A DNA stretch of 64,000 nucleotides from Candidatus Heimdallarchaeota archaeon (GCA_020353515.1 CP070695.1:666843-730842), one strand, 5' to 3'. Shown: positions 1,985 to 46,875, counted from the stretch's first letter. Numbers and translations are program-made. Notes: a model not told the origin generated them from the sequence alone.

Positions 1985-2452
1985 TTATTTGTGAGAGTCC
2001 AATAATTCGAAAGGACGATCTTTAGGACGGAAAAGAACGGTCCGTGAACTTTCCTTTGATGGACTTGGAAATTTTTCAAGAATTCCCATCTTTTCAAGCT
2101 TATTAAGATGATAACTGGTCGTACTTCGACTCCGACCCATTCGCTCCGCTACTTCTGAAGCAGTCATACCTTTTTCTGGTTCCTGAGCCTCAGCCAATGT
2201 TTGGTATGTACGTTTCAAGTGATCATCTAGATTATCAAAATCAGTCTGCTCTCTATTTTCTACAGCGGATTTAAGAATACTAGATCTAGTTGAGATCGAA
2301 AGATTTCTGTCTATATAGCCCTCAAGTTGTGAAATTCGATGATCTAGGTTATCAAAGTGAGTTCTCAATTCTGTAACACTTAATAAAATCTCATCTAGTT
2401 TGTCTTGTGAGGATTTCTTCTTTTCACTATTTTGTGATACCAATAATACCAC
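1985..2452 (-). CDS. Winged-helix (ArsR/TrmB-like) transcriptional regulator with N-terminal coiled coil
   Basis: MTASEVAERMGRSRSTTSYHLNKLEKMGILEK HTH; heptad-like N-terminal segment. Confidence 0.8.
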   Translation of the reverse strand: MVLLVSQNSEKKKSSQDKLDEILLSVTELRTHFDNLDHRISQLEGYIDRNLSISTRSSILKSAVENREQTDFDNLDDHLKRTYQTLAEAQEPEKGMTASEVAERMGRSRSTTSYHLNKLEKMGILEKFPSPSKESSRTVLFRPKDRPFELLDSHK

Positions 2453-2904
2453 ACTCTTGGGCTATGTTTAATCTTCACCCGCTGTTTTTAAAGTTTAACT
2501 TACCAGAACTTTAGTTCCAAACATACACTCCTCAAATGTATCCTCATCTAAAATCAATCTGATTCTCAATAAACTAGCTAGTTGAAACTGCAATTTTTAT
2601 ATCCAAAATGGTTGTTTTTATCGATATTTAGGGAATTAATAGTTAGAAAGCGAATAAATCTAAATGTTTTACTATTTGAAACTAAATAATATGCCAAACC
2701 ATGTTATTTTCCTTCCTCAGATTCCTCTATTAATTCAAAATAAAGAAAAAAAGGTTGTGATTGGATTTATAACAAAATCAACCAGAGTATCATTTGAAAT
2801 ACATTAACTTAAAAGCAAAAGGTTTTAAGTACAATCGCAATTTAGTGTATAGATCGTTATTATTTAGCCGTCCTAGACCAGGTTATTTAGGGATTCGATG
2901 AAAA

Positions 2905-36771: not shown

Positions 36772-37476
36772 GTGTGGAAAACACGATTAATATTGTTGTC
36801 AATCTTTTTCAGTTTGTGGGCGTTTAATCTTGGTTTTGTTATTGCTGTAGAACCTGCTGACTACGGAGATGTAGTAGATGTGAATTACTCTCTATGGCTA
36901 GATGAGGGGCATACAATAGAAAAGGAAGGGAATATTAATGTGAATTTGCGTTACATCTATCTTAGAAGGAGTCAAACTGAACCAGTTCCAACAAAAGTAT
37001 ACAGGGCATTACCAGCAGCCCCGAATGAAGACCTTCAACAAGTATACCTTCAAGCATTCATTGATGCAGTTATTGGAATGGAGGTTGATGAAACAAAGAA
37101 TTTTATGATTGCAGCTAAAGATGCTTACGGGAATGAAGACCTTTATTATTACATCAAGATACTAGCACTTCTTTATGACGCTTCAGCACAAGATACTGAG
37201 GAAAAAGAAACCTCAGATCCTTTTAAAGATTTTTATCCCCTATTAATAGGCGGGAGTGTGATTGTAGCTGGAGGGGGATTAGCAGTGTGGTATGTATACT
37301 CATCACGAACACACAAGTCAGCACTTTCAGAGGAGAAAATGAGTTCCGCAGTACGAGCTAAATCGATCCAGAGAGACAAAGACAAAATTAAAGAACTACG
37401 AGAGCTCACAGAGGCAATGATAGGTTCAGCTGAGACTGCAAAGAAAGAAGAGGTAAAATTCCGCCGACGTCGATGA
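36772..37476 (+). CDS. Exported, membrane-anchored FKBP-type PPIase-like protein
   Basis: Signal peptide; GDVVDVNY...AFIDAVIGMEVDETKNFMIAAKDAYG FKBP pattern; C-terminal TM plus basic coiled tail. Confidence 0.7.
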   Translation: MWKTRLILLSIFFSLWAFNLGFVIAVEPADYGDVVDVNYSLWLDEGHTIEKEGNINVNLRYIYLRRSQTEPVPTKVYRALPAAPNEDLQQVYLQAFIDAVIGMEVDETKNFMIAAKDAYGNEDLYYYIKILALLYDASAQDTEEKETSDPFKDFYPLLIGGSVIVAGGGLAVWYVYSSRTHKSALSEEKMSSAVRAKSIQRDKDKIKELRELTEAMIGSAETAKKEEVKFRRRR

Positions 37477-37489
37477 TTATGCAACTCCT

Positions 37490-37939
37490 ATGAGAAGAAA
37501 AAAACGAAAAATCATGTCGAAAAAACTATTGGAAGGATTATGGCAATCAGAAAAGGCAAAAATCATTGAATCCTTACCAAAAACAAAAAAATCCGTGACA
37601 TCTCTACTCTCACATCCTGTATTTGAGCTAAACAACGGTGAAGAGTCGATCGTGGAACTCTCAGAACTAGAATTCATCAAAAGCGTTATACCAAGCGCTC
37701 TAAACGATCAACTGATGTTACCCTTTATTTTTCAGAAGAAAAAAAGCCAATACACTTTACTTGGGGGAAAACTTGAACAATGGGTTGTTGAGAAAATTCT
37801 GGGATTGACTAAATCCTCTCCATTCCTACTTGAGCTCTTCCATCCACGCTCAGATTACTTCATATATCACGTCAAACGAGTTCAATCAAAGATTCCAACA
37901 TTGGTGTTTCTTACTTTTTCGATAAATACTCAGAGTTAG
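37490..37939 (+). CDS. DUF61-like archaeal protein
   Basis: LP..KKS...LL..P..EL..GE......EL, L.LP; resembles UPF0216/DUF61. Confidence 0.55.
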   Translation: MRRKKRKIMSKKLLEGLWQSEKAKIIESLPKTKKSVTSLLSHPVFELNNGEESIVELSELEFIKSVIPSALNDQLMLPFIFQKKKSQYTLLGGKLEQWVVEKILGLTKSSPFLLELFHPRSDYFIYHVKRVQSKIPTLVFLTFSINTQS

Positions 37940-37942
37940 ATA

Positions 37943-38344
37943 TTAATAAAGTAAAACATTTTGACTATCAGAATCTTCCATTGTTGTTGTTTTAACCCCC
38001 GAAGAAAGAATTCGGATCAAATCATTTCTTGTAAGTAAAAAAATCCGAATTTTTTCTGCAAGGGATCGCGCTGGGTCAGAGAAGTAATTCGTTACAACAA
38101 GCATTTTAGATAAGAATCGACTATTTTTCATGACTTTTTCTGCGCGAATAACGATATCAACACCAACAGCTCGTTTCCAGTCCTTAATGATGACTCCAAT
38201 ACCTTCATTTTCATCACCATTTTGAATGACAAAATCGATTTCATTATCTCGCTGATGGAATTTCCGATCAACCATCAAATTGCGTTGACGACAATATTCG
38301 AGTGTAAGCTCTTCTAATCCAAGTAATTGATAATTATTTTTCAC
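37943..38344 (-). CDS. Stand-alone Mrr-like restriction-endonuclease-fold protein
   Basis: EIDFVI...IIKDWKRAVGVDIV...VVTNYFSDPA...AE...IFLL; GTG start overlaps the upstream stop. Confidence 0.75.
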   Translation of the reverse strand: MKNNYQLLGLEELTLEYCRQRNLMVDRKFHQRDNEIDFVIQNGDENEGIGVIIKDWKRAVGVDIVIRAEKVMKNSRFLSKMLVVTNYFSDPARSLAEKIRIFLLTRNDLIRILSSGVKTTTMEDSDSQNVLLY

Positions 38345-39452
38345 GATTTATCCCTTCAAATGTGATATAAGCATCCTCAGTAAAAGTTAATTCGAATGCC
38401 AGACGCTCAAGAATTCCAAAAATCGCTCTATTTGGTCGATAGGCTTTCTCTCTTAAATCTCGATCTGTAGATTGTTCATAAATCAGATTACCACTCAATA
38501 AATCTCCCAAGTGGTGACTTATGGTGCTTTTTGTTTTATTCATCAAAATTGTAAGTTCTTTATGGATAAGGTATCTTCGCTTAGCAGGGGGCAGAAAGTC
38601 GTTGTGAACCTCTCGTACTAGGATCTCACGAAGAATGGGAGATTTACTCAAAGGAAAAGTCTTCAAGGCTTTTGAATTAATTCCAAAAGTATATCGAATA
38701 TCTTCAACTCTACGAGAAAACGTGAAGATTTCCTTTAAGATTCTTAAAGCCACTCCTGGGTTCCCTAGAGATAGTTTTGCTATTTTTTGACATTCATCTT
38801 CTGTTATGGGGAGATCAATTCCCCCATAACAGACTTTAAGACGTCTATTAAGGATGTCCCTGATATCTGATGAAATTAAGTGGGGCATTGATAAGAAATT
38901 TTGGTATGTCTTGTCTCCACTTTGAATACAAAGACGACGATAAATTTCAAATTCTGTGTTATCCATTATTGCGATAATTTTAGGTGAATCAGCAGGGGAT
39001 TTTAGTGATAAAAGCCGGGCAAGGGTTTTATGTAAATAAAAAGCATTATCTAGAAAAATGATGTCGGACTTTAATTCCATATTCAAGCTAACTGTTTCAT
39101 TAGGATCAACGGTTCGTTCTGTAAAAAAAGTGGCTGCATCTTGATAATTTGCCAAGACATTCAGCTTTTGACTGTATTCTTTGAAAATATGTGCAAAAAC
39201 TGTTTTTCCACTTCCACGTGGCCCTTTTAGGAATAATAAATCATTTTCTGATTCATGGATGAAATCGATTATCTTTGCAATGAGGTTTTTAAATTGTGGA
39301 TTTTCTCCATAAAATGCTTTAGGTTGTTGAAGAGGAAGTAAAGGCTCACAAGGATCACATAGAAATCCTATTCTTCTCCGTTGCTTTTCTTGTTTTTGTT
39401 GCTTGGCAGCATCCTCAAATAATTCACTGATATGATCATCACGGCTCTTCAT
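38334..39452 (-). CDS. AAA+ ATPase with C-terminal winged helix (Walker B degenerate)
   Basis: GPRGSGKT, IIFLDNA, ILNRRL, GNPGVAL, HTH KSTISHHLGDL; start reassigned to ATG 39452 (ATGA overlap, SD gaggagg). Confidence 0.8.
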   Translation of the reverse strand: MKSRDDHISELFEDAAKQQKQEKQRRRIGFLCDPCEPLLPLQQPKAFYGENPQFKNLIAKIIDFIHESENDLLFLKGPRGSGKTVFAHIFKEYSQKLNVLANYQDAATFFTERTVDPNETVSLNMELKSDIIFLDNAFYLHKTLARLLSLKSPADSPKIIAIMDNTEFEIYRRLCIQSGDKTYQNFLSMPHLISSDIRDILNRRLKVCYGGIDLPITEDECQKIAKLSLGNPGVALRILKEIFTFSRRVEDIRYTFGINSKALKTFPLSKSPILREILVREVHNDFLPPAKRRYLIHKELTILMNKTKSTISHHLGDLLSGNLIYEQSTDRDLREKAYRPNRAIFGILERLAFELTFTEDAYITFEGINREK

Positions 39453-40783
39453 GATAGCTTCCTCCTCGACAAAAAGATAGTTTTCGGTTCTATATGATAT
39501 TTTTCTTGTTTTAAATGCTGATAAACAGTAATGATTTCCAGAGCATGAGCCATATGAGAATTCCATTTAACATAGAAAATTTTAGAGCGGGCATCATGAA
39601 CGTCGTCTTTCGCTTCTAGGATTGGAATCGGAAGAGTGGATGTTAATGGTTTAATATGGTAATTCATTGTAGAAAGGTTAACAGCAAAAAGATCAGCTAG
39701 GTCTGAACTGCGTAGCCCATCTACTCCTGTAGCTGGGAAAAAAAAGCGTTCCTGTAACTGATGACCAAGAATGGCTGCAATTATGTCTCGCCGTTTTGGA
39801 GTGAGAAGGGTTGTAGTTTCTTCAGCCGTGTCTTTATCAATGGATTCTACAAGGTCTATTGCTACATTATAGCCTTCTCTACCAACAACTGCGTTAACAA
39901 TCCGAGCTGTGACTTTATCAATATTTTGAATAATTATCTCTTCTAAACAGTCTGAGGCCAGCTGTAATGCCACGGTAGGTATGCCTAGACTAAAATTAGC
40001 AATTGTTTCAATGGCTTTCGCTGAAAAAAGATCCAGGGGATTTCTAGCAATACTTAATCGTTGCGTTAATAGTATGCGAATTTCAGTTTTAGAGAAAACA
40101 GGAAAAAAGAAATATTCAGGATTAAAATAAGAGAGAAAATCTCGGGCGAGGATTTTTTGGTTTGCTTCTAAGAGAACTGTTAACGCGATACTATTAACAA
40201 ATCCGATAATTATAACTCCATGTTCTGCTCGGGTCTCAATATCAGTCATGAACTGTCTAATACGGGGAATAGCTGGAGTTCCTGTTATGGTATAATCCAA
40301 TTCATCAATAAAAATGATAAGAGGTTTATCTACAAGTTTGATATCATTCAGGAAACTTTCATAGGTCTCTATTGTTTTGGTTGATGAACTAAATTGATCC
40401 TCTATAGGTTCTCGCCAGTCAGATAGATCAGTATAAATCGTAATATAGTCTTGAAAACCTATTTGATCCCATTCTCGATCGAAATGACGAGCAAGATGCG
40501 ATTTCCCACTCCCACGTAACCCATGAGTAAGTAAATGGCGAAATGGAGAGAGAGGGTCTTGTTCAAATAAACGAATGGCATTTCCAACTTGAATGGCAAA
40601 ATCTAACAGAACTTCCTCACGAGCAACGTAAAAATCAGGGTTATTAGGATCCACTTTTTGTTGGAATGGATCTTGAGGGAAGCCAAATCGCTCAAAGGGA
40701 GTTTTTTTGGCAAGTTGGCCCGAGCGACCTGCTTTCAAAGCCTCTTTGATCTTATCCGCCAATTTGGTCAAGCGAGGAACCAC
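39449..40783 (-). CDS. AAA+ ATPase with C-terminal winged helix (Cdc6/ExeA-like)
   Basis: FGFPQDPF, GLRGSGKS, IIFIDELD, FPVFSKTEIRILLTQRL, GIPTVAL, HTH SSDLADLFAVNLSTMNYHI. Confidence 0.82.
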   Translation of the reverse strand: MVPRLTKLADKIKEALKAGRSGQLAKKTPFERFGFPQDPFQQKVDPNNPDFYVAREEVLLDFAIQVGNAIRLFEQDPLSPFRHLLTHGLRGSGKSHLARHFDREWDQIGFQDYITIYTDLSDWREPIEDQFSSSTKTIETYESFLNDIKLVDKPLIIFIDELDYTITGTPAIPRIRQFMTDIETRAEHGVIIIGFVNSIALTVLLEANQKILARDFLSYFNPEYFFFPVFSKTEIRILLTQRLSIARNPLDLFSAKAIETIANFSLGIPTVALQLASDCLEEIIIQNIDKVTARIVNAVVGREGYNVAIDLVESIDKDTAEETTTLLTPKRRDIIAAILGHQLQERFFFPATGVDGLRSSDLADLFAVNLSTMNYHIKPLTSTLPIPILEAKDDVHDARSKIFYVKWNSHMAHALEIITVYQHLKQEKYHIEPKTIFLSRRKLS

Positions 40784-40976
40784 TCTTAGATATTCTCGAT
40801 ATATCAGAATACTATGAGCTCATCGAACAAAACATGTCTTTTTCGACATAATAGTTTTGAACCCTATAGAAGGATTAACGATGAGCATGGTTTTGTCAGT
40901 CCGTATCCATATCAGTTCTGTCTTATTTGATGACATGAAGGATTGAAAGTTCGATTTTTGGATTTTCCTAACACAA

Positions 40977-41104
40977 TCGAATCAAATCGAACTATTCGAA
41001 CTATCCCTTAAAAAGCTTTTCTGAAAGTATTTTAAATGTCAAGAGGACTGGTTATTCTAGAAAAGAGATATAAGTTTTTATAAAGAATGCCTTCATCGAA
41101 CTAT
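40977..41104. repeat. Clustered TCGAAC(TAT) direct repeats upstream of the AAA+ operon
   Basis: atcgaatcaaatcgaactattcgaactat at about 40977-41005, atcgaactat at about 41095-41104, atcgaac also near 40822. Confidence 0.45.
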
Positions 41105-41392
41105 TTTTAATAATTTTCAACTCTTGATTTCAAGTGTTTTTTATATTAATTTCCCGACATTTTTGTTTCATAAGCCTTTTCACGATCTATCAATGTTAAC
41201 TGTGTCTTTATAATACCATGTACCTTTTTTTAATGAAACTCCTGGTTCCTAACAAGTACCATGTAATTTGAGTAAAATTGTGCCTATTAGTGCTGTTACG
41301 TACTAATGATGTGATATTTCATTCTTGTCTCGCCGGCCTATTCAGTTAGCTTTAAGAACCATTCTATCCCTTCTAGACATGAAGGAGAGCAT

Positions 41393-41533
41393 TTGCAAGA
41401 CGAATCTCAGTTTATTGACACATTAATAAAGACGGCGTATAATTACGGAAAACGGTACATATATCGCACTCTCTCCAATATTCTTAAGGAATGGTCATTG
41501 GACGAGCTCCTTGAGGATAGTCAATTTCGTTAA
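41393..41533 (+). CDS. Small unannotated ORF (46 aa)
   Basis: TTG start with SD aggag upstream and TATA-like tttaa near 41351; MQDESQFIDTLIKTAYNYGKRYIYRTLSNILKEWSLDELLEDSQFR. Confidence 0.4.
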   Translation: MQDESQFIDTLIKTAYNYGKRYIYRTLSNILKEWSLDELLEDSQFR

Positions 41534-41641
41534 TTGTAACTAATACTCATTGCAAGTTTTAATCACCTTTTCTTTGAATCTCTTTTCTTTTTAATATTCT
41601 TCCCTATGATTTTTCAATATATCTTCTCGAATATTCGAAAT

Positions 41642-41658
41642 TCGAACAGTTTATAAAT
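41642..41658 (+). promoter_or_regulatory. BRE/TATA promoter of the PadR operon
   Basis: cgaacag-tttataaa about 30 nt before the ATG at 41687. Confidence 0.55.
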
Positions 41659-41686
41659 TTCTCTAAATAATACTTCCTTGGTTTGA

Positions 41687-42058
41687 ATGGTTGATAGTGA
41701 ATCCGCTCGTGAATATAATTCATATTTAGGCAAGGACTTATCAACTTTACTCATTTTATCAACCTTAAGTGCCAAGAAAAGATCCAGTACTTATGAATTA
41801 ATCCGAGATATCAAAACTAAGACTAATAACAAGATCTCTCTTCGAGCGGGCACTATTTATCCTCACATGGAGAAATTAGAATCGCTGGGGGTCATAAACA
41901 AATATGTAGAAGATACTCCCTCCCGTTCCGAGGGAGTTATTCGTCAAAAATCTGTCTACTCGATAACTCAGAAAGGACTTGAAATGCTAAGGGAAAAAAT
42001 GCGAGATTGGAACGACCTTCAATTCATAATTAATAGTTTACTAGCAAACGAAATGTGA
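41687..42058 (+). CDS. PadR-family transcriptional regulator
   Basis: YELIRDI, GTIYP.MEKLE..G, YSITQKG...L...W. Confidence 0.9.
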   Translation: MVDSESAREYNSYLGKDLSTLLILSTLSAKKRSSTYELIRDIKTKTNNKISLRAGTIYPHMEKLESLGVINKYVEDTPSRSEGVIRQKSVYSITQKGLEMLREKMRDWNDLQFIINSLLANEM

Positions 42059-42067
42059 GCATGTTAA

Positions 42068-43255
42068 ATGAATCCTAATAATTCACAATTTCAGGAATTT
42101 TCAACCTATTTCACTTCTGATGCTTGGCAACTAGTCAGTTCTTTCCTTAATAATCTTCAAGCGAAGATGGATCAGTTTAGTGTATCAACTGAAGAACAGA
42201 CAACAATTCTTCATGGAATAGAAGAATATATTCTTGAATTCATTGAAAATTATAAAGATCGGGCAAAGATCACTTTTGTTGAAGCTCTGGAGCTTATTCA
42301 AGAAATAGGTTCTCCTTCTGAAATTCTCCACTCTATGGATCTCCCGTTTGATCAGACAATTAAACCAGAGATCATAACACCAGAAAATGATTCTTCAACG
42401 TATGCTAAAGTGAAATGTAAGGCCTGTGAGTGGCCAAATGAACCTGATTCTCGATTCTGTGACCATTGTGGCGTTAGAATTGGTGAATTAATAGAAGGCA
42501 GAAAGCAGCTTCGCCTTCCTAGAATACCTGATGAAATTATTGTATTTCCTTATATATCAGGTTTCCTACTTGCTTACCTGCTATTGATTTTTACTGGAGT
42601 TCTTACCATAATCATAACTTATTCTTCTCTTAATTACCCAAATTTAGATTATATCCCCGAATTATACCGTAAATTAAGTGATACTCCACCTGATATGATT
42701 ATTCCAGCATTTATAATTGGATTGATCATAGGATATCTTATCGAGCGTTTTTATTCAGGGAAATTGACCAAGTATCGACATGATGTGCATTTGACTCAAT
42801 TCCAAAGGTATTTTTCCCTCGGATTAGTTCTTACAGTTATTGCCCTCTGGTTATTCTTTATTTATGTCCCGATCCGAGTAACACGTGATGAATTAACCAC
42901 GTTGTTTATTTTTCTAACAATTGTATGTGTTTTCTTTTCCATATGGATCTATAAATGGAACTCAACAAGGAAACCCTCCGACACGCCCTATCTAACTATC
43001 CTGAGGCACATAAAGGGGTTGGAAGAAGATAATTTTCGGAAAATCCTGACTTTTAATTTAGTTGGTGATGTAGGAATCTTTTTGCTTGTATTCATTTTTT
43101 GGAGCCCGATAATGCCTTGGAATGTAGTTGCAATTCCTGCATGGATTGTCCTAGTTATAAGTCTCATAATACTTCTAAATGGAGTTCTTCTAATGAATTA
43201 TTATTCTTGGATGCACATAAATCGATTTATTGGCTTCACTAAACCATTTTCTTAA
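42068..43255 (+). CDS. Membrane protein with N-terminal HAAS-like helical domain and zinc ribbon
   Basis: FL..L...EEQ..IL..IEEYI....IGSPSEI (HAAS-like), CKAC...FCDHCG ribbon, about 6 TM helices; 9 nt after padR. Confidence 0.65.
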   Translation: MNPNNSQFQEFSTYFTSDAWQLVSSFLNNLQAKMDQFSVSTEEQTTILHGIEEYILEFIENYKDRAKITFVEALELIQEIGSPSEILHSMDLPFDQTIKPEIITPENDSSTYAKVKCKACEWPNEPDSRFCDHCGVRIGELIEGRKQLRLPRIPDEIIVFPYISGFLLAYLLLIFTGVLTIIITYSSLNYPNLDYIPELYRKLSDTPPDMIIPAFIIGLIIGYLIERFYSGKLTKYRHDVHLTQFQRYFSLGLVLTVIALWLFFIYVPIRVTRDELTTLFIFLTIVCVFFSIWIYKWNSTRKPSDTPYLTILRHIKGLEEDNFRKILTFNLVGDVGIFLLVFIFWSPIMPWNVVAIPAWIVLVISLIILLNGVLLMNYYSWMHINRFIGFTKPFS

Positions 43256-43646
43256 TGATTTTTTTGATTGTTATATTTTTAGCTCGTTACAGTTGAAGTA
43301 AGGGCACTAGGTAGCGTATTTAATGTTAATAACCAAATTTCTTTTTTCGAGTGTTCGGAAATCGAATAGTTTATAAACTAATATTTGGGTTTCAATATCC
43401 AGATCAAAAACCTTCAAAAAAATAAGTTGATGAACACAATGATGAAAATAAATCTCAAACGAATAAAAAATGGTAGGAAAAGGCGTTTCAATATAATTAA
43501 TAGGGAAAAATATCATTCTTCTAGGAAAAGTACTCATAAAAATACCCATTTGGGTGTTAGATCAGTTTGGTGTGGCTCCCTACAATATGATGGGATTTAT
43601 ATTCTTAAACGCATTCCAAAACGAAGAAATTAGGAGATATTAGGGT

Positions 43647-45602
43647 ATGAGATATGCAAAGCTTTTAGCATTATTGCTAATACTCCTACCTTTATTTTCT
43701 ATCAGAATAATTGATTCCGTGGCAGAAAATGCTTCCACCCTCGGCTACATGTTTATTGATAATCAAAGAGGAGCTGGGAAAATATTCGAGTCGAACGTCC
43801 TTCCCGAAAATGTAAGTTTTTCAAATATGTCTTTATCGGTCAAACTAAATGAAGCTCTTTCAGTGATTGAAGGAATTTTAACTGTATTTTATGTTAACAA
43901 TGATCATGTCACATTTGATTCTATTCCCTTCCATCTTTATCCTTCTGGTATGCAGTATGAAAGTCGTCAGGGAGAAATCAGCATTTTAAATGTCACTACA
44001 ACAGATTCTCCAAGCATTAGCCTTCTCTATGAAGTTTTTTCTGATCAACAACTGATGTGGGTGAATCTAAGTTCTCCATTGGAATATCAACAGAACACAT
44101 CTTTTCGTATAGCCTTTACTACAACTCTTCCCGATGGTCAAGATAGAGCTAATTCTTATGGGCTTGATAGTGGACAATCACGTGTTTATACTTGTACTGC
44201 TTTTTATCCGATACCTTGTGTGTATGATAAGTATGATGGTTGGAATACTGATAAGTATCTTACTATGGGTGATCCCTTTTATTTTGATATGGCTTACTAT
44301 GACCTTGTGATTGAAGTTCCTAACAATATGACTGTCGTCGCAACGGGGGAATTACTCAGCAGCACTACCATTGGAACATCAACTGTCTATCATTATAATC
44401 CCCATTATCCAGTACGGGAAGTGGTATTTTCAGCATCACGATATTTTCTGAAAGAATCTCAGATCATTAATGGCATGAATATCTCATGCTATTATTTACC
44501 CCATAGTAGCAGTCTATGGGAAGATGACGCCCTTAATACCACAATCAACTCGTTTCTTCTCTTTAATAACTCTTTTGGCGCTTATCCTTACAATACGTTC
44601 AATGTTGTAGAGGTCTATGGTTTTTATGGAGGCATGGAATATCCCTGTCAAGTACAAATATCTGAATCCATTGTGGATCAACATCCAGAGGATTATGAGT
44701 TCTTCCAAGAACTAATAATTGCCCATGAAGTGGCTCATCAGTGGTGGTGTCAAATAGTTGGAAATGATCAGATTGATTGGGGACACTTAGATGAGGGATT
44801 AACTTGTTGGTCCACAGATTATTATTTCGACTATTGCTATCCAAGTTGGCACTATTTCGACAATTATTGGGCCCTTGATACTGTAAGAACCTATTATGAG
44901 AACAATGGTTTACCAAATAGAATTAATCAATCAATTTACAACTTCATTGACACTAATATGAGTTATCGTTATACAGCTTACACCAAAGCACCATTAATCT
45001 TGCAAAAGCTTCGCTTAACGATCGGACATGATGATTACATTGCCGGGTTAAGGCACTTCTTTCACAATTACAGGTTTCACCTAGCCAGATTTCCAGATCT
45101 TCAAAGATCCTTCGAAATTGTGACTGGAAATTCCTTGGATTGGTTTTTCCTTCCTTGGTTTGACAATCCTTATCTTCCTAGCTATTATTACATGAATGTG
45201 GATTATAATCCTCATACACAAGCAATCACTGTTACCATTGGAGATCTTAACGAGGACAAGAATGAATATACCTATTCCCAGCAACTATATCTTCAGGTTA
45301 TGGATTTTCAAAAACAAGAAATCTACCATCGTGAACAATTCTGGATAAATGGTACGACTACAGTATCCCTCGTGGTTTCTGATAAAGACGATCCTGGGGC
45401 AGTACTTTTGATGTACGAATCTGATGTTCTTGTCCAATTATGGTCGGCTGATGTAACTGCGTTAACTTTTCTTACTGATAGCTGGTTCAAATCAAACCTA
45501 ATCGAACTAATAGAACTGTCAGTATTTCTTGTTGTTATTTGTGTACTATCGGGTTATATTGTTTGGGGGATCAAAAAGCGAAAGTTTCCCAATAAAAGTT
45601 GA
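43647..45602 (+). CDS. Secreted, membrane-anchored M1-family metalloaminopeptidase
   Basis: Signal peptide, GGMEYP, HEVAHQWW-x-LDEG, AYTK; C-terminal TM and basic tail; many NxS/T sequons. Confidence 0.92.
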   Translation: MRYAKLLALLLILLPLFSIRIIDSVAENASTLGYMFIDNQRGAGKIFESNVLPENVSFSNMSLSVKLNEALSVIEGILTVFYVNNDHVTFDSIPFHLYPSGMQYESRQGEISILNVTTTDSPSISLLYEVFSDQQLMWVNLSSPLEYQQNTSFRIAFTTTLPDGQDRANSYGLDSGQSRVYTCTAFYPIPCVYDKYDGWNTDKYLTMGDPFYFDMAYYDLVIEVPNNMTVVATGELLSSTTIGTSTVYHYNPHYPVREVVFSASRYFLKESQIINGMNISCYYLPHSSSLWEDDALNTTINSFLLFNNSFGAYPYNTFNVVEVYGFYGGMEYPCQVQISESIVDQHPEDYEFFQELIIAHEVAHQWWCQIVGNDQIDWGHLDEGLTCWSTDYYFDYCYPSWHYFDNYWALDTVRTYYENNGLPNRINQSIYNFIDTNMSYRYTAYTKAPLILQKLRLTIGHDDYIAGLRHFFHNYRFHLARFPDLQRSFEIVTGNSLDWFFLPWFDNPYLPSYYYMNVDYNPHTQAITVTIGDLNEDKNEYTYSQQLYLQVMDFQKQEIYHREQFWINGTTTVSLVVSDKDDPGAVLLMYESDVLVQLWSADVTALTFLTDSWFKSNLIELIELSVFLVVICVLSGYIVWGIKKRKFPNKS

Positions 45603-45615
45603 ATGAGTTGATAAA

Positions 45616-46875
45616 ATGGACGTACAAGTGAGAAAGGAACAAAATCATTCTCTAAAACCACTTCCCCGTATACCTGCAATAGATTTTGTAAGGGGATTAG
45701 CAATTATTCTAATGGCTCTTGATCATGCTTCTACTTATTGGAATTCAGGCCGATTTTTTGGCGAATTTTGGTTTGCAGGTCGTCCAGAAGTTCTACCAGA
45801 CCTTTTGCAATTTTTAGTTCGTTTTGTATCTCATTGGTGTGCCCCTACATTTGTTTTCTTAGCAGGGACATCGATTGTTTTATTTGAAACAAAACGATTG
45901 GAGCAAGGAAGGACAAACGAAGAAATAACTAAACATCTGATCATTAGAGGTTTATTACTACTCTTGATTGAATGGACTTTAATTGCTTGGTTATTTGGTG
46001 CTGCACCCTTTTATTTCGGTGTTTTAGCAGCGCTAGGAGTAGGACTCATCGTCTTCGCCTTTCTACGGAAAGTTAATACAAAGATAATTCTTGGGTTCTC
46101 ATTGTTCTTGTTGTTGACTCCAATTTTTGCAGATTTCATTTGGAATCCACTTTTCGAGGAACCTGGACAACATCCATTAGGATTCTCTGCACTTTATTTC
46201 AGTTTCATCGTTGATCCTCTTTTTTCAGGTTCCCCAGAGTTCCTGACTTGGATTCAAGCAGTAGTGAAGTGGCCTCAATGGCCCTATGGTTTATATCCCC
46301 TTGAGTCATGGCTAGGCGTTATGGGATTAGGTGTTGTATTTGGTAGGTGGCTGGTGCAAAAACAACAATTACCTGATTCCAATAGGTACGTAGCGAAACG
46401 ACTTTTGCAAACAGGTCTTTTTACTCTTTTAGGATTCTTTATTGTGCGAATTTTTCAGGGATTTCCAACAAGCTACTTTCCAATTTGGGCTAGTGATAGT
46501 GTCTTAATAGAGGATGCATTCGCAATCCAGAATTTTTTCTTTATGTCGAAATATCCTCCTAGTACCGTTTTTCTTCTTTGGACATTAGGTGGAATGTGTC
46601 TAGCTCTTGCCCTAGCATTTTATTATCAAGAGAATGAAATCTTTCAGTCTTGGTCCAAACCGATTACCGTTTTTGGTGCCACAGCACTCTTTTTTTATTG
46701 CGCACACTTGGTTGTATATGGTATTGTACCAAGCATTCTTGGTGTCAAAAATGCTTTTTCGATACAACTTACATTAATTGTGTGGGTTCTTGGTCTGCTT
46801 ATTCTCTATCCCGTTTGTATTGAATTTCGTAAATTGAAGAAAGAATATCCTCAATCAGTCCTCAAATACTTTTGA
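45616..46875 (+). CDS. DUF1624/HGSNAT-like membrane acyltransferase
   Basis: RIPAIDFVRGLAIILMALDH, SHWCAPTFVFLAG, KYPPS; multi-TM. Confidence 0.85.
   Translation: MDVQVRKEQNHSLKPLPRIPAIDFVRGLAIILMALDHASTYWNSGRFFGEFWFAGRPEVLPDLLQFLVRFVSHWCAPTFVFLAGTSIVLFETKRLEQGRTNEEITKHLIIRGLLLLLIEWTLIAWLFGAAPFYFGVLAALGVGLIVFAFLRKVNTKIILGFSLFLLLTPIFADFIWNPLFEEPGQHPLGFSALYFSFIVDPLFSGSPEFLTWIQAVVKWPQWPYGLYPLESWLGVMGLGVVFGRWLVQKQQLPDSNRYVAKRLLQTGLFTLLGFFIVRIFQGFPTSYFPIWASDSVLIEDAFAIQNFFFMSKYPPSTVFLLWTLGGMCLALALAFYYQENEIFQSWSKPITVFGATALFFYCAHLVVYGIVPSILGVKNAFSIQLTLIVWVLGLLILYPVCIEFRKLKKEYPQSVLKYF

Follow-up and report, generated by a model that had tools for sequence, protein, structure and literature searches.

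An autoregulated Orc1/Cdc6-shaped ATPase operon with a degenerate Mrr-fold partner, proposed from comparative analysis of a Hodarchaeales locus

The operon described here comprises three minus-strand genes, g1, g2 and g3, at positions 37943-40783 of a 64,000-nucleotide (nt) window (G000:C1:666843-730842) within the single-contig 4.94-Mb genome of a Candidatus Heimdallarchaeota archaeon; the source names of near-identical proteins point to the Hodarchaeales, within the Asgard archaea of the Heimdall group. g1 and g2 encode paralogous AAA+ proteins ending in a winged helix, g3 encodes a small Mrr-fold protein, and a head-to-tail array of TTCGA-type repeats lies upstream of g1. We propose that its products form an autoregulated, ATP-gated DNA-binding complex, and not a motor, a restriction enzyme or the replication initiator, a reading which we hold with about as much belief as doubt. 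The initial annotation had left initiator-like, regulatory and defence roles side by side and had not included the array. It is the conservation of this operator-like array which leads us to favour the regulatory role.

Results

All three genes were confirmed as open reading frames (ORFs) at the coordinates first described. g1 (39449-40783, minus strand) encodes an AAA+ ATPase-lid-winged-helix protein of 444 amino acids (aa) if read from GTG 40783; its orthologues begin with MTKLADK, corresponding here to TTG 40771 and not to GTG 40783, and TTG 40771, giving 440 aa, is probably the start. The paralogous AAA+-lid-winged helix-turn-helix (wHTH) protein of 372 aa is encoded by g2 (38334-39452, minus strand), and the Mrr_cat-fold protein of 133 aa by g3 (37943-38344, minus strand), which begins with a GTG 11 nt inside g2. 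The genes are joined by overlaps, as had been noticed initially: the ATG of g2, preceded by a GAGG-type ribosome-binding site, shares an ATGA with the TGA of g1 (39449-39452, minus strand), and the stop of g2 overlaps the GTG start of g3 by 11 nt (38334-38344, minus strand). Since the 4-nt and the 11-nt overlap are also kept at the orthologous loci of 12 other genomes, they are selected and not due to chance, and the ATGA overlap of g1 and g2 is, judged from its arrangement, a translational coupling. GC content is about 35% throughout, without a compositional island at the locus, and an Rfam scan of 37000-42200 returned nothing meaningful.

Alignment of the two family profiles (hhalign 97.6%, E 2.7e-12, 322 columns) identifies g1 and g2 as true full-length paralogues of the same layout, in agreement with the paralogy first suggested. 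Pfam and NCBIfam models gave only weak generic matches to both proteins (AAA, AAA_16, AAA_14, a RuvB-type lid and HTH_20/HTH_5/MsvR-type winged helices), and when the PDB was searched with profiles from the alignments of g1 and g2, all matches stayed at noise level. An AlphaFold2 model of g1, built from 50 sequences with a predicted local distance difference test (pLDDT) score of 90.3, was more informative. Orc1/Cdc6 came first in Foldseek (E 1.3e-10) as well as in an independent all-against-all structural comparison, and the matches extended across the full protein with its winged helix. The match to 2qby_A, Orc1-1 of S. solfataricus on origin DNA, reached Z 16.7 over 312 residues across 33-407, followed by Drosophila Cdc6 (Z 16.3), A. 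pernix ORC2 (Z 14.8) and yeast and human Cdc6/ORC1 (Z 13.5-14.2). Generic AAA+ proteins (Z about 12-13) and, over the full length, the ATPase_2 structures 2qen (Z 12.8) and 2fna (Z 11.3) stayed below Orc1/Cdc6. The shared build thus consists of AAA+ base, lid and C-terminal winged helix, and includes a P..L..RE-type motif ahead of the P-loop. In sequence, however, g1 lies far outside the Orc1/Cdc6 family: TIGR02928, with a cut-off of 181.3 bits, gives 21.7 bits for g1 and 13.8 bits for g2, whereas four canonical Orc1/Cdc6 genes elsewhere in the same genome score 181-442 bits. Profile comparison with these four proteins aligned the AAA+ base only (hhalign 88.9%, 198 columns), and Cdc6_C gave no match among 50 family members.

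The lid of both proteins had initially been described as Cdc6/ExeA-like, and a resemblance to ExeA is also seen at the N-terminus. The N-terminus of g1 forms a helix followed by an ERFGF.QDPF / P.F..RE motif (ERFGFPQDPF in the present sequence), the counterpart of which in g2 is RIGFLCDPC. Both proteins thereby carry the aromatic-Gly-(L/F)xxxPF motif followed by a P-loop that marks ExeA/GspA-like AAA_22 proteins (PF13401), with P39 and F40 invariant in 26 distant members, and this FGF..DPF-type N-terminus sets them apart from archaeal Orc1/Cdc6. The family profile reaches a classical ExeA-like protein (P0191) at E 4.8e-7. g1 and g2 themselves are not listed for PF13401 at E 0.1, but 14 of the 50 family members match weakly at E <= 0.01 (best 2e-5); the nearest ESM-Atlas clusters, which can serve as a lead only, are archaeal AAA_22 proteins, and one family member carries the name 'ExeA' in one source. 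ExeA has a peptidoglycan-binding C-terminus, acts in secretin assembly and lacks a wHTH. The present locus, by contrast, has no secretion context. ATPase_2 (PF01637) is matched weakly by 4/50 family members. Matches to STAND models (NACHT/NB-ARC/nSTAND) were confined to weak sub-threshold P-loop hits, and the g1 protein ends in its wHTH at residue 444 without a repeat domain.

Walker A, lid motif and C-terminal HTH are present in both ATPases, as first read. Walker A (GLRGSGKS in g1, GPRGSGKT in g2) is invariant among the orthologues of each protein. At Walker B, which reads FIDELD in g1 and FLDN in g2, the initial annotation had distinguished an active from a degenerate ATPase. The canonical Asp-Glu of g1 is real in this genome but restricted to its close kin: the 39 g1 orthologues show DDLD (15), DSLD (7), DNLD (5), DDFD (5), N.LD (3), DELD (1) and others (3), so that the Walker B Asp is followed by D in 20 sequences, by S/N/C in 18 and by E in 1. 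Because DE occurs in only 1/39 orthologues, the active-plus-degenerate split is not a feature of the family. The invariant acidic residue of the g1 family is instead the second Asp of FIDxLD. Among g2 orthologues the Walker B Asp is invariant and is followed by N, K, R or D, in none by Glu. The lid motifs, GIPTVAL in g1 and GNPGVAL in g2, both lack the sensor-2 Arg, as had been noted, the position in G.P..AL being mostly T among g1 and G among g2 orthologues. With Walker A kept and neither the Walker B Glu nor the sensor-2 Arg conserved, g1 and g2 look like ATP-binding switches, and not like a motor with a dead partner. The EFEIYRR segment of g2 holds two invariant Arg at the place expected for an arginine finger, and a counterpart is found in most, not all, g1 orthologues. 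The C-terminal winged helices (NLSTMNYHIKPL in g1, TKSTISHHLGDL in g2) are of ArsR/HTH_20 type, which also distinguishes them from those of archaeal Orc1/Cdc6, and their recognition helix ST.SYHL is nearly invariant superfamily-wide.

Upstream of g1, a triple head-to-tail repeat with a period of 9-10 base pairs (bp), TAGTTCGAA-TAGTTCGAT-TTGATTCGAT (40976-41003, minus strand), forms a candidate operator which overlaps the expected transcription start of a predicted distal promoter. A TATA-like box, TTTTTAA (41008-41014, minus strand), recognised by eye in the alignment, lies about 8 nt upstream of the array and reads TTATAAA or TATATAT in orthologues. Three further copies surround the array. 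A single upstream copy, AATAGTTCGAT (41095-41105, minus strand, about -318 from the start codon), is kept in position in most orthologous loci; an inverted copy, GTTCGAT (40949-40955, plus strand), 20 nt downstream of the array, is kept only in close relatives; and a proximal copy, TTGTTCGAT (40822-40830, minus strand, about -45), sits just upstream of a second T/A-rich box, GATATAT, the TTGTT(C/T)GAT block at this copy being kept in all aligned orthologues. Altogether, 6 of the 19 GTTCGAW sites in the window fall within the 900-bp region upstream of g1. Copies of TAGTTCGAW occur at matching offsets before g1 in 16/17 orthologous loci, down to 55% protein identity, and stay with g1 whether a PadR gene or another gene lies upstream. 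Genome-wide, TAGTTCGAW is found at 80 sites, below the expectation from composition, and the g1 array is the sole TAGTTCGAW cluster as well as the sole 9-bp tandem GTTCGAW pair in 4.94 Mb; triple TCGAW arrays amount to the g1 array and one unrelated match.

The statistical association of array and gene extends to deeply diverged family members. ATTCGAA-type units, 9 or 18 bp apart, precede family genes at -23 to -154 in the sister family f4, in the tandem pairs of family f28, where the array stands before the first gene only, and in genome G398, although these proteins share only about 20% identity with g1. The 47 family loci analysed (272 kb) contain 20 exact WTCGAW pairs with 9-bp spacing. 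All 20 fall in the 400 bp preceding a family gene, zones that make up 9% of the sequence, and the other 247 kb hold none; related loci in this count are not independent samples, but the exact pairs come from four deep Asgard clades (this genus, the f28 tandem pairs, G398 and f4) which differ in their neighbour genes. The genomic background of such pairs is 2.6 per Mb, and in a control set of 72 kb, taken from the surroundings of canonical Orc1/Cdc6 genes and of AAA+ genes more distant in sequence, no 9-bp-spaced WTCGAW pair was found.

One may ask whether some other factor binds the repeats, the array being a control input to g1/g2/g3 proteins which act elsewhere, for instance sequence-independently on damaged or modified DNA. 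The genome holds no further arrays which would define a regulon, and the clade of a third paralogue, P3, has no TTCGA arrays at its loci, both of which fit this explanation. On the other hand, the array tracks family genes in four deep clades with differing neighbours and stays in place when the upstream neighbour changes, and a shared trans factor other than a family protein would have to co-vary in the same manner. We consider this alternative unlikely.

Since the closest fold is that of Orc1/Cdc6 on origin DNA (2qby), we also considered that g1 and g2 oligomerise on the array as a secondary origin or site mark, loading a helicase or organising the locus. The intergenic region beside g1 is long (about 900 bp), its direct and inverted repeats are unique in the genome, the recurrent tandem paralogue pairs of the family resemble the Orc1-1/Orc1-3 heterodimer, and archaeal origins typically adjoin their initiator gene. 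However, the presence of four canonical Orc1/Cdc6 genes elsewhere, together with the low TIGR02928 scores of g1 and g2, renders the initiator role named initially unlikely, and the alignment to the canonical proteins does not extend beyond the AAA+ base. Neither Walker B Glu nor sensor-2 Arg is conserved, and a helical initiator-specific motif between beta-2 and alpha-2 is not clearly seen in the g1 model, where residues 120-140 form a loop (pLDDT 61-73) and a single helix follows at 141-149. In addition, the array lies directly behind the TATA-like box, and the arrays of other clades, 40-120 nt before the start codon, are placed like operators. Genome-wide cumulative GC skew has no usable inflection and neither supports nor opposes an origin. 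Taken together, we regard the origin or site-mark explanation as quite improbable, and an operator function of the array as the preferred reading.

Other candidates were considered for the region around the array. The divergent PadR gene (41687-42058) was rejected as owner of the array, given that PadR lies upstream in few genomes only and the array stays with g1. A structured leader or small RNA in the approximately 200 nt between array and g1 is unsupported (consensus fold -8 kcal/mol, covariation term +1.8). A 38-aa ORF in this stretch (40820-40936, minus strand) was rejected as coding, with an in-frame stop in L011 and no ATG in L010; its nucleotide blocks are kept among close relatives, its frame is not. 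The plus-strand block at 41687-46875, which encodes the PadR-like regulator, a zinc-ribbon membrane protein, a 651-aa protein and a membrane protein, sits between g1 and the genes found upstream of g1 in most relatives, in a local rearrangement or insertion seen in few genomes; an HEXXH motif read by eye suggests that the 651-aa protein is a metallopeptidase.

Within the genus, g1 is single-copy in 17/21 other genomes, and the four genomes without it are 70-87% complete. Downstream synteny is kept genus-wide, with g3 followed by a convergent DUF61 gene, FKBP-like, PAC2 and RING genes and a tubulin-like operon, and the upstream neighbour of g1 varies. The idea of a coupled operon which travels together held in that g3 follows g1 or g2 at 18/18 loci, but not for g2, which is absent in 5/18 species (G048 and the clade of G049, G052, G053 and G055); the gap between g1 and g3 in these species measures 70-87 nt. 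The neighbourhood survey thus leaves g1 and g3 as the constant core, since g2 is missing in these five species. A maximum-likelihood tree recovers g1, g2, P3 and the f4 homologues as separate clades, each with support 100. The g2 clade lies outside g1 and joins the downstream gene of a tandem pair found in another genus of the order (support 82, long branches). A recent in-genus duplication of g1 as the source of g2 is disfavoured by this separate deep clade and by the last ~16 nt of g2, which are retained before the g3 start at a g2-less locus. From this pattern g2 is probably old and twice lost, and loss appears more likely than late gain. Compared over the same species pairs, g2 is the fastest-evolving and g3 the slowest of the three among close relatives, with g1/g2/g3 identities of, for example, 88/72/92% in one pair and 83/71/85% in another.

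Beyond the genus, the layout AAA-wH, AAA-wH, Mrr-like is found in L059, from another genus of the order, and independent tandem paralogue pairs are present in family f28 and, judging by neighbouring locus tags, in genomes labelled Hermodarchaeota. This independent recurrence fits the heteromeric complex put forward initially; however, with g2 absent in 5/18 species, a heteromer is not obligatory for the function of g1 and g3. Among 1.84 billion representative proteins, the g1 profile retrieved 87 clusters at E <= 0.001, and every named one is Asgard, so that the g1 family appears to be confined to Asgard archaea. We found no description of the g1/g2 family in the literature searched and no match to a characterised system.

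Further family members were observed at a distance from the operon. P3 (L066:6029-7213, plus strand, corresponding to G000:C1:4710028-4711212, outside the window; about 395-400 aa) is kept across the genus at another locus, without Mrr partner and without TTCGA array. In the present genome its frame offers no ATG, GTG or TTG near the conserved N-terminus; a CTG following GGAG aligns with the Met of the orthologues and may serve as start. Within the window, a frame of about 158 aa (2039-2413, minus strand) matches the family profile only at the winged-helix part (model 284-395, E 1.3e-9) and may encode a stand-alone copy of the family DNA-binding domain. In f4-clade genomes, a conserved 177-aa gene flanks the family homologue (L069:6715-7248, minus strand; L070:4547-5080, plus strand), and its N-terminal ...IAIIVDGPNL, read by eye, looks like an NYN/LabA-type domain.

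The third protein, g3, matches Mrr_cat (PF04471) with E 9.7e-14 and 51.9 bits, above the cut-off of 21, and its model (pLDDT 82.5) superposes on the catalytic domain of MspJI as nearest solved fold (E 4e-5), followed by NucS/EndoMS, AspBHI, Can2 and Hjc. The conserved core carries the signature IGVIIKDWKRAVGVD, and the motif region reads IDF...VIIKDW. Its description as degenerate was borne out across the family: the catalytic (E/Q) of (E/Q)xK is absent in 98/98 relatives, the position being I, T, V, L or M, and the Asp of beta-2 is D in 65/84 relatives and N, S, E, Q, Y or H in the other 19/84. Since the former residue is always and the latter sometimes replaced, canonical nuclease chemistry by g3 is very unlikely. 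Compared with Mrr/MspJI-type PD-(D/E)xK nucleases, g3 further lacks Mrr_N or an SRA-like reader and stands alone with about 135 aa; a search for longer fused proteins containing the g3 domain found none, which is weak evidence. Among the fold matches of the g3 model, the highest query TM-scores, 0.55-0.57, were obtained for the N-terminal domain of RPB5, a subunit of eukaryotic RNA polymerase, with weak E-values of 0.01-0.07. Three more stand-alone mini-Mrr proteins of 124-130 aa, with an IGVIV(K/R)DW signature and likewise without the catalytic E/Q, are encoded in this genome (L101:1483-1875, minus strand; L102:1402-1785 and 2100-2474, plus strand; about 3.405 Mb and 0.953 Mb of G000:C1). Two of these genes are in tandem and none of the three adjoins an ATPase gene, which suggests an expansion of a non-catalytic mini-Mrr family in this genome.

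Pairs of an AAA+ or other nucleoside triphosphatase (NTPase) with a PD-(D/E)xK protein are common in defence, and the operon could accordingly be an anti-virus or anti-plasmid module of McrBC-, Mrr- or STAND-like type, with g1/g2 as sensors and g3 as effector. The proximity of g3 to a restriction nuclease domain, its score of 20.4 bits for NA-iREase1 (PF22722; cut-off 27), a family which likewise joins a degenerate nuclease fold to an NTPase system, and the weak matches of some family members to NACHT or nSTAND models would be in line with such a module. In PADLOC-DB 2.0, however, no system was matched, the best hits being wHTH or P-loop fragments at noise level (E 7e-5 to 0.03) with none for g3. 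The defence role is unlikely because, in addition, the genus inherits the locus vertically, as a single copy in fixed synteny, and the nuclease is dead. No mobile-element or defence-island neighbours were seen, g1 and g2 have no sensor repeat domain, and the family-wide operator-like array points to gene regulation. We therefore judge the defence explanation very improbable and return to a regulatory complex as the favoured reading.

Discussion

We propose a model in which g1, together with g2 where present, would adopt the three-domain Orc1/Cdc6 build and assemble upon binding of ATP, with rapid hydrolysis playing no driving part, as in ORC/Cdc6-type and STAND-type switches. The ArsR-like winged helices would then bind the TTCGA(A/T) repeats head-to-tail, one per 9-bp unit, as an ATP-dependent oligomer. 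As the conservation of the site suggests, binding behind the TATA-like box upstream of g1 would allow the proteins to control their own promoter. g2 may be regarded as a faster-evolving, dispensable partner, kept in fixed proportion through translational coupling, whose invariant arginines could complete an ATP site between subunits. For g3, the loss of catalytic residues argues for a degenerate Mrr-fold accessory or sensor for DNA or protein contact, and not for a nuclease. More speculatively, the trio may descend from a domesticated NTPase-plus-nuclease module.

Several points weigh against this model. Asp-Asp, found at Walker B in about half of the g1 orthologues, may still allow hydrolysis, and the invariant K54, D55, R58 and E69 of g3 could form an unconventional active site. 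In this genus, the array precedes the g1 start codon by about 190-220 nt, a long distance for an archaeal promoter, and it could be an upstream activating site or have another function; it could also be bound by another factor. Finally, no second array target was found in the 4.94-Mb genome, and the designation as a regulator thus refers to autoregulation only.

The proposed working principle is shared with STAND-type activators such as MalT, in which nucleotide-driven multimerisation is combined with a C-terminal HTH that binds direct-repeat arrays at the promoter. g1 and g2 differ from these proteins in the absence of sensor repeats and in a lid which is Orc/RuvB-like and not a NOD arm, and membership in STAND is unsupported. 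A related theme, an ATPase-winged-helix protein combined with a restriction-endonuclease fold, is known from AAA_14 proteins, which pair with PD-(D/E)xK C-terminal domains (DUF234, DUF4143). The ATPase_2 proteins PAB2304 (2qen) and SSO1545 (2fna) are likewise Orc-like ATPases with a winged helix, and weak AAA_14 and ATPase_2 matches occur in the g1/g2 family. In the present operon, however, the nuclease fold is a separate Mrr_cat-type gene and not a fused DUF234 or DUF4143 domain, and g1 and g2 stay below the thresholds of the sequence models. McrBC and LlaI/BsuMI-type systems resemble the operon in combining, in a coupled unit of two to three genes, an AAA+ protein bearing a DNA-binding domain with a small PD-(D/E)xK partner. 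McrB, though, is a GTP-specific hexameric motor of another AAA+ clade and McrC an active nuclease, whereas here motor features are not conserved, the nuclease is degenerate, and the chromosomal locus is fixed and carries an operator-like array.

For the Orc1/Cdc6 fold itself, Orc1-2 of Sulfolobus is an Orc1/Cdc6-family transcription regulator in the DNA-damage response (PMC6061795, PMC9738581), and thus a precedent for a sequence-specific regulator of this fold. We liken the favoured mechanism to Orc1/Cdc6 on origin boxes, to regulation by Sulfolobus Orc1-2 and to STAND-type activators on direct repeats. With the archaeal Orc1/Cdc6 proteins, including Orc1-2 of the Sulfolobales, the operon further has in common the occurrence of paralogue pairs on DNA; it differs from them in its dedicated Mrr-fold partner and in its candidate target, a 9-bp-periodic TTCGA array as opposed to ORB elements or the hexamer motif of Orc1-2.

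Conclusions

A more far-reaching interpretation, which we put forward as a long shot, is that the proteins constitute an undescribed Asgard class of Orc/Cdc6-shaped ATP-switch proteins which polymerise head-to-tail on TTCGA iterons of 9-bp period, were repeatedly duplicated into heteromeric pairs, recruited a dead Mrr-fold subunit in Hodarchaeales and mark one unique chromosomal site as an ORC-like nucleoprotein switch, for instance as a lineage-specific origin or as a segregation or epigenetic site. If true, heteromeric ORC-type assemblies would have been tried out independently in archaea that are the closest kin of eukaryotes.

If the favoured reading of an autoregulated, ATP-gated complex is right, the operon would provide a compact ATP-dependent DNA-binding system from an archaeal order often placed nearest to eukaryotes, and a concrete example of the domestication of an NTPase-plus-nuclease module. 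It would add an Orc1/Cdc6-fold family with a specific 9-bp-periodic TTCGA target, recurrent heteromeric duplication and an exapted nuclease fold, and, beside Sulfolobus Orc1-2, a second and sequence-unrelated regulatory use of the initiator fold.

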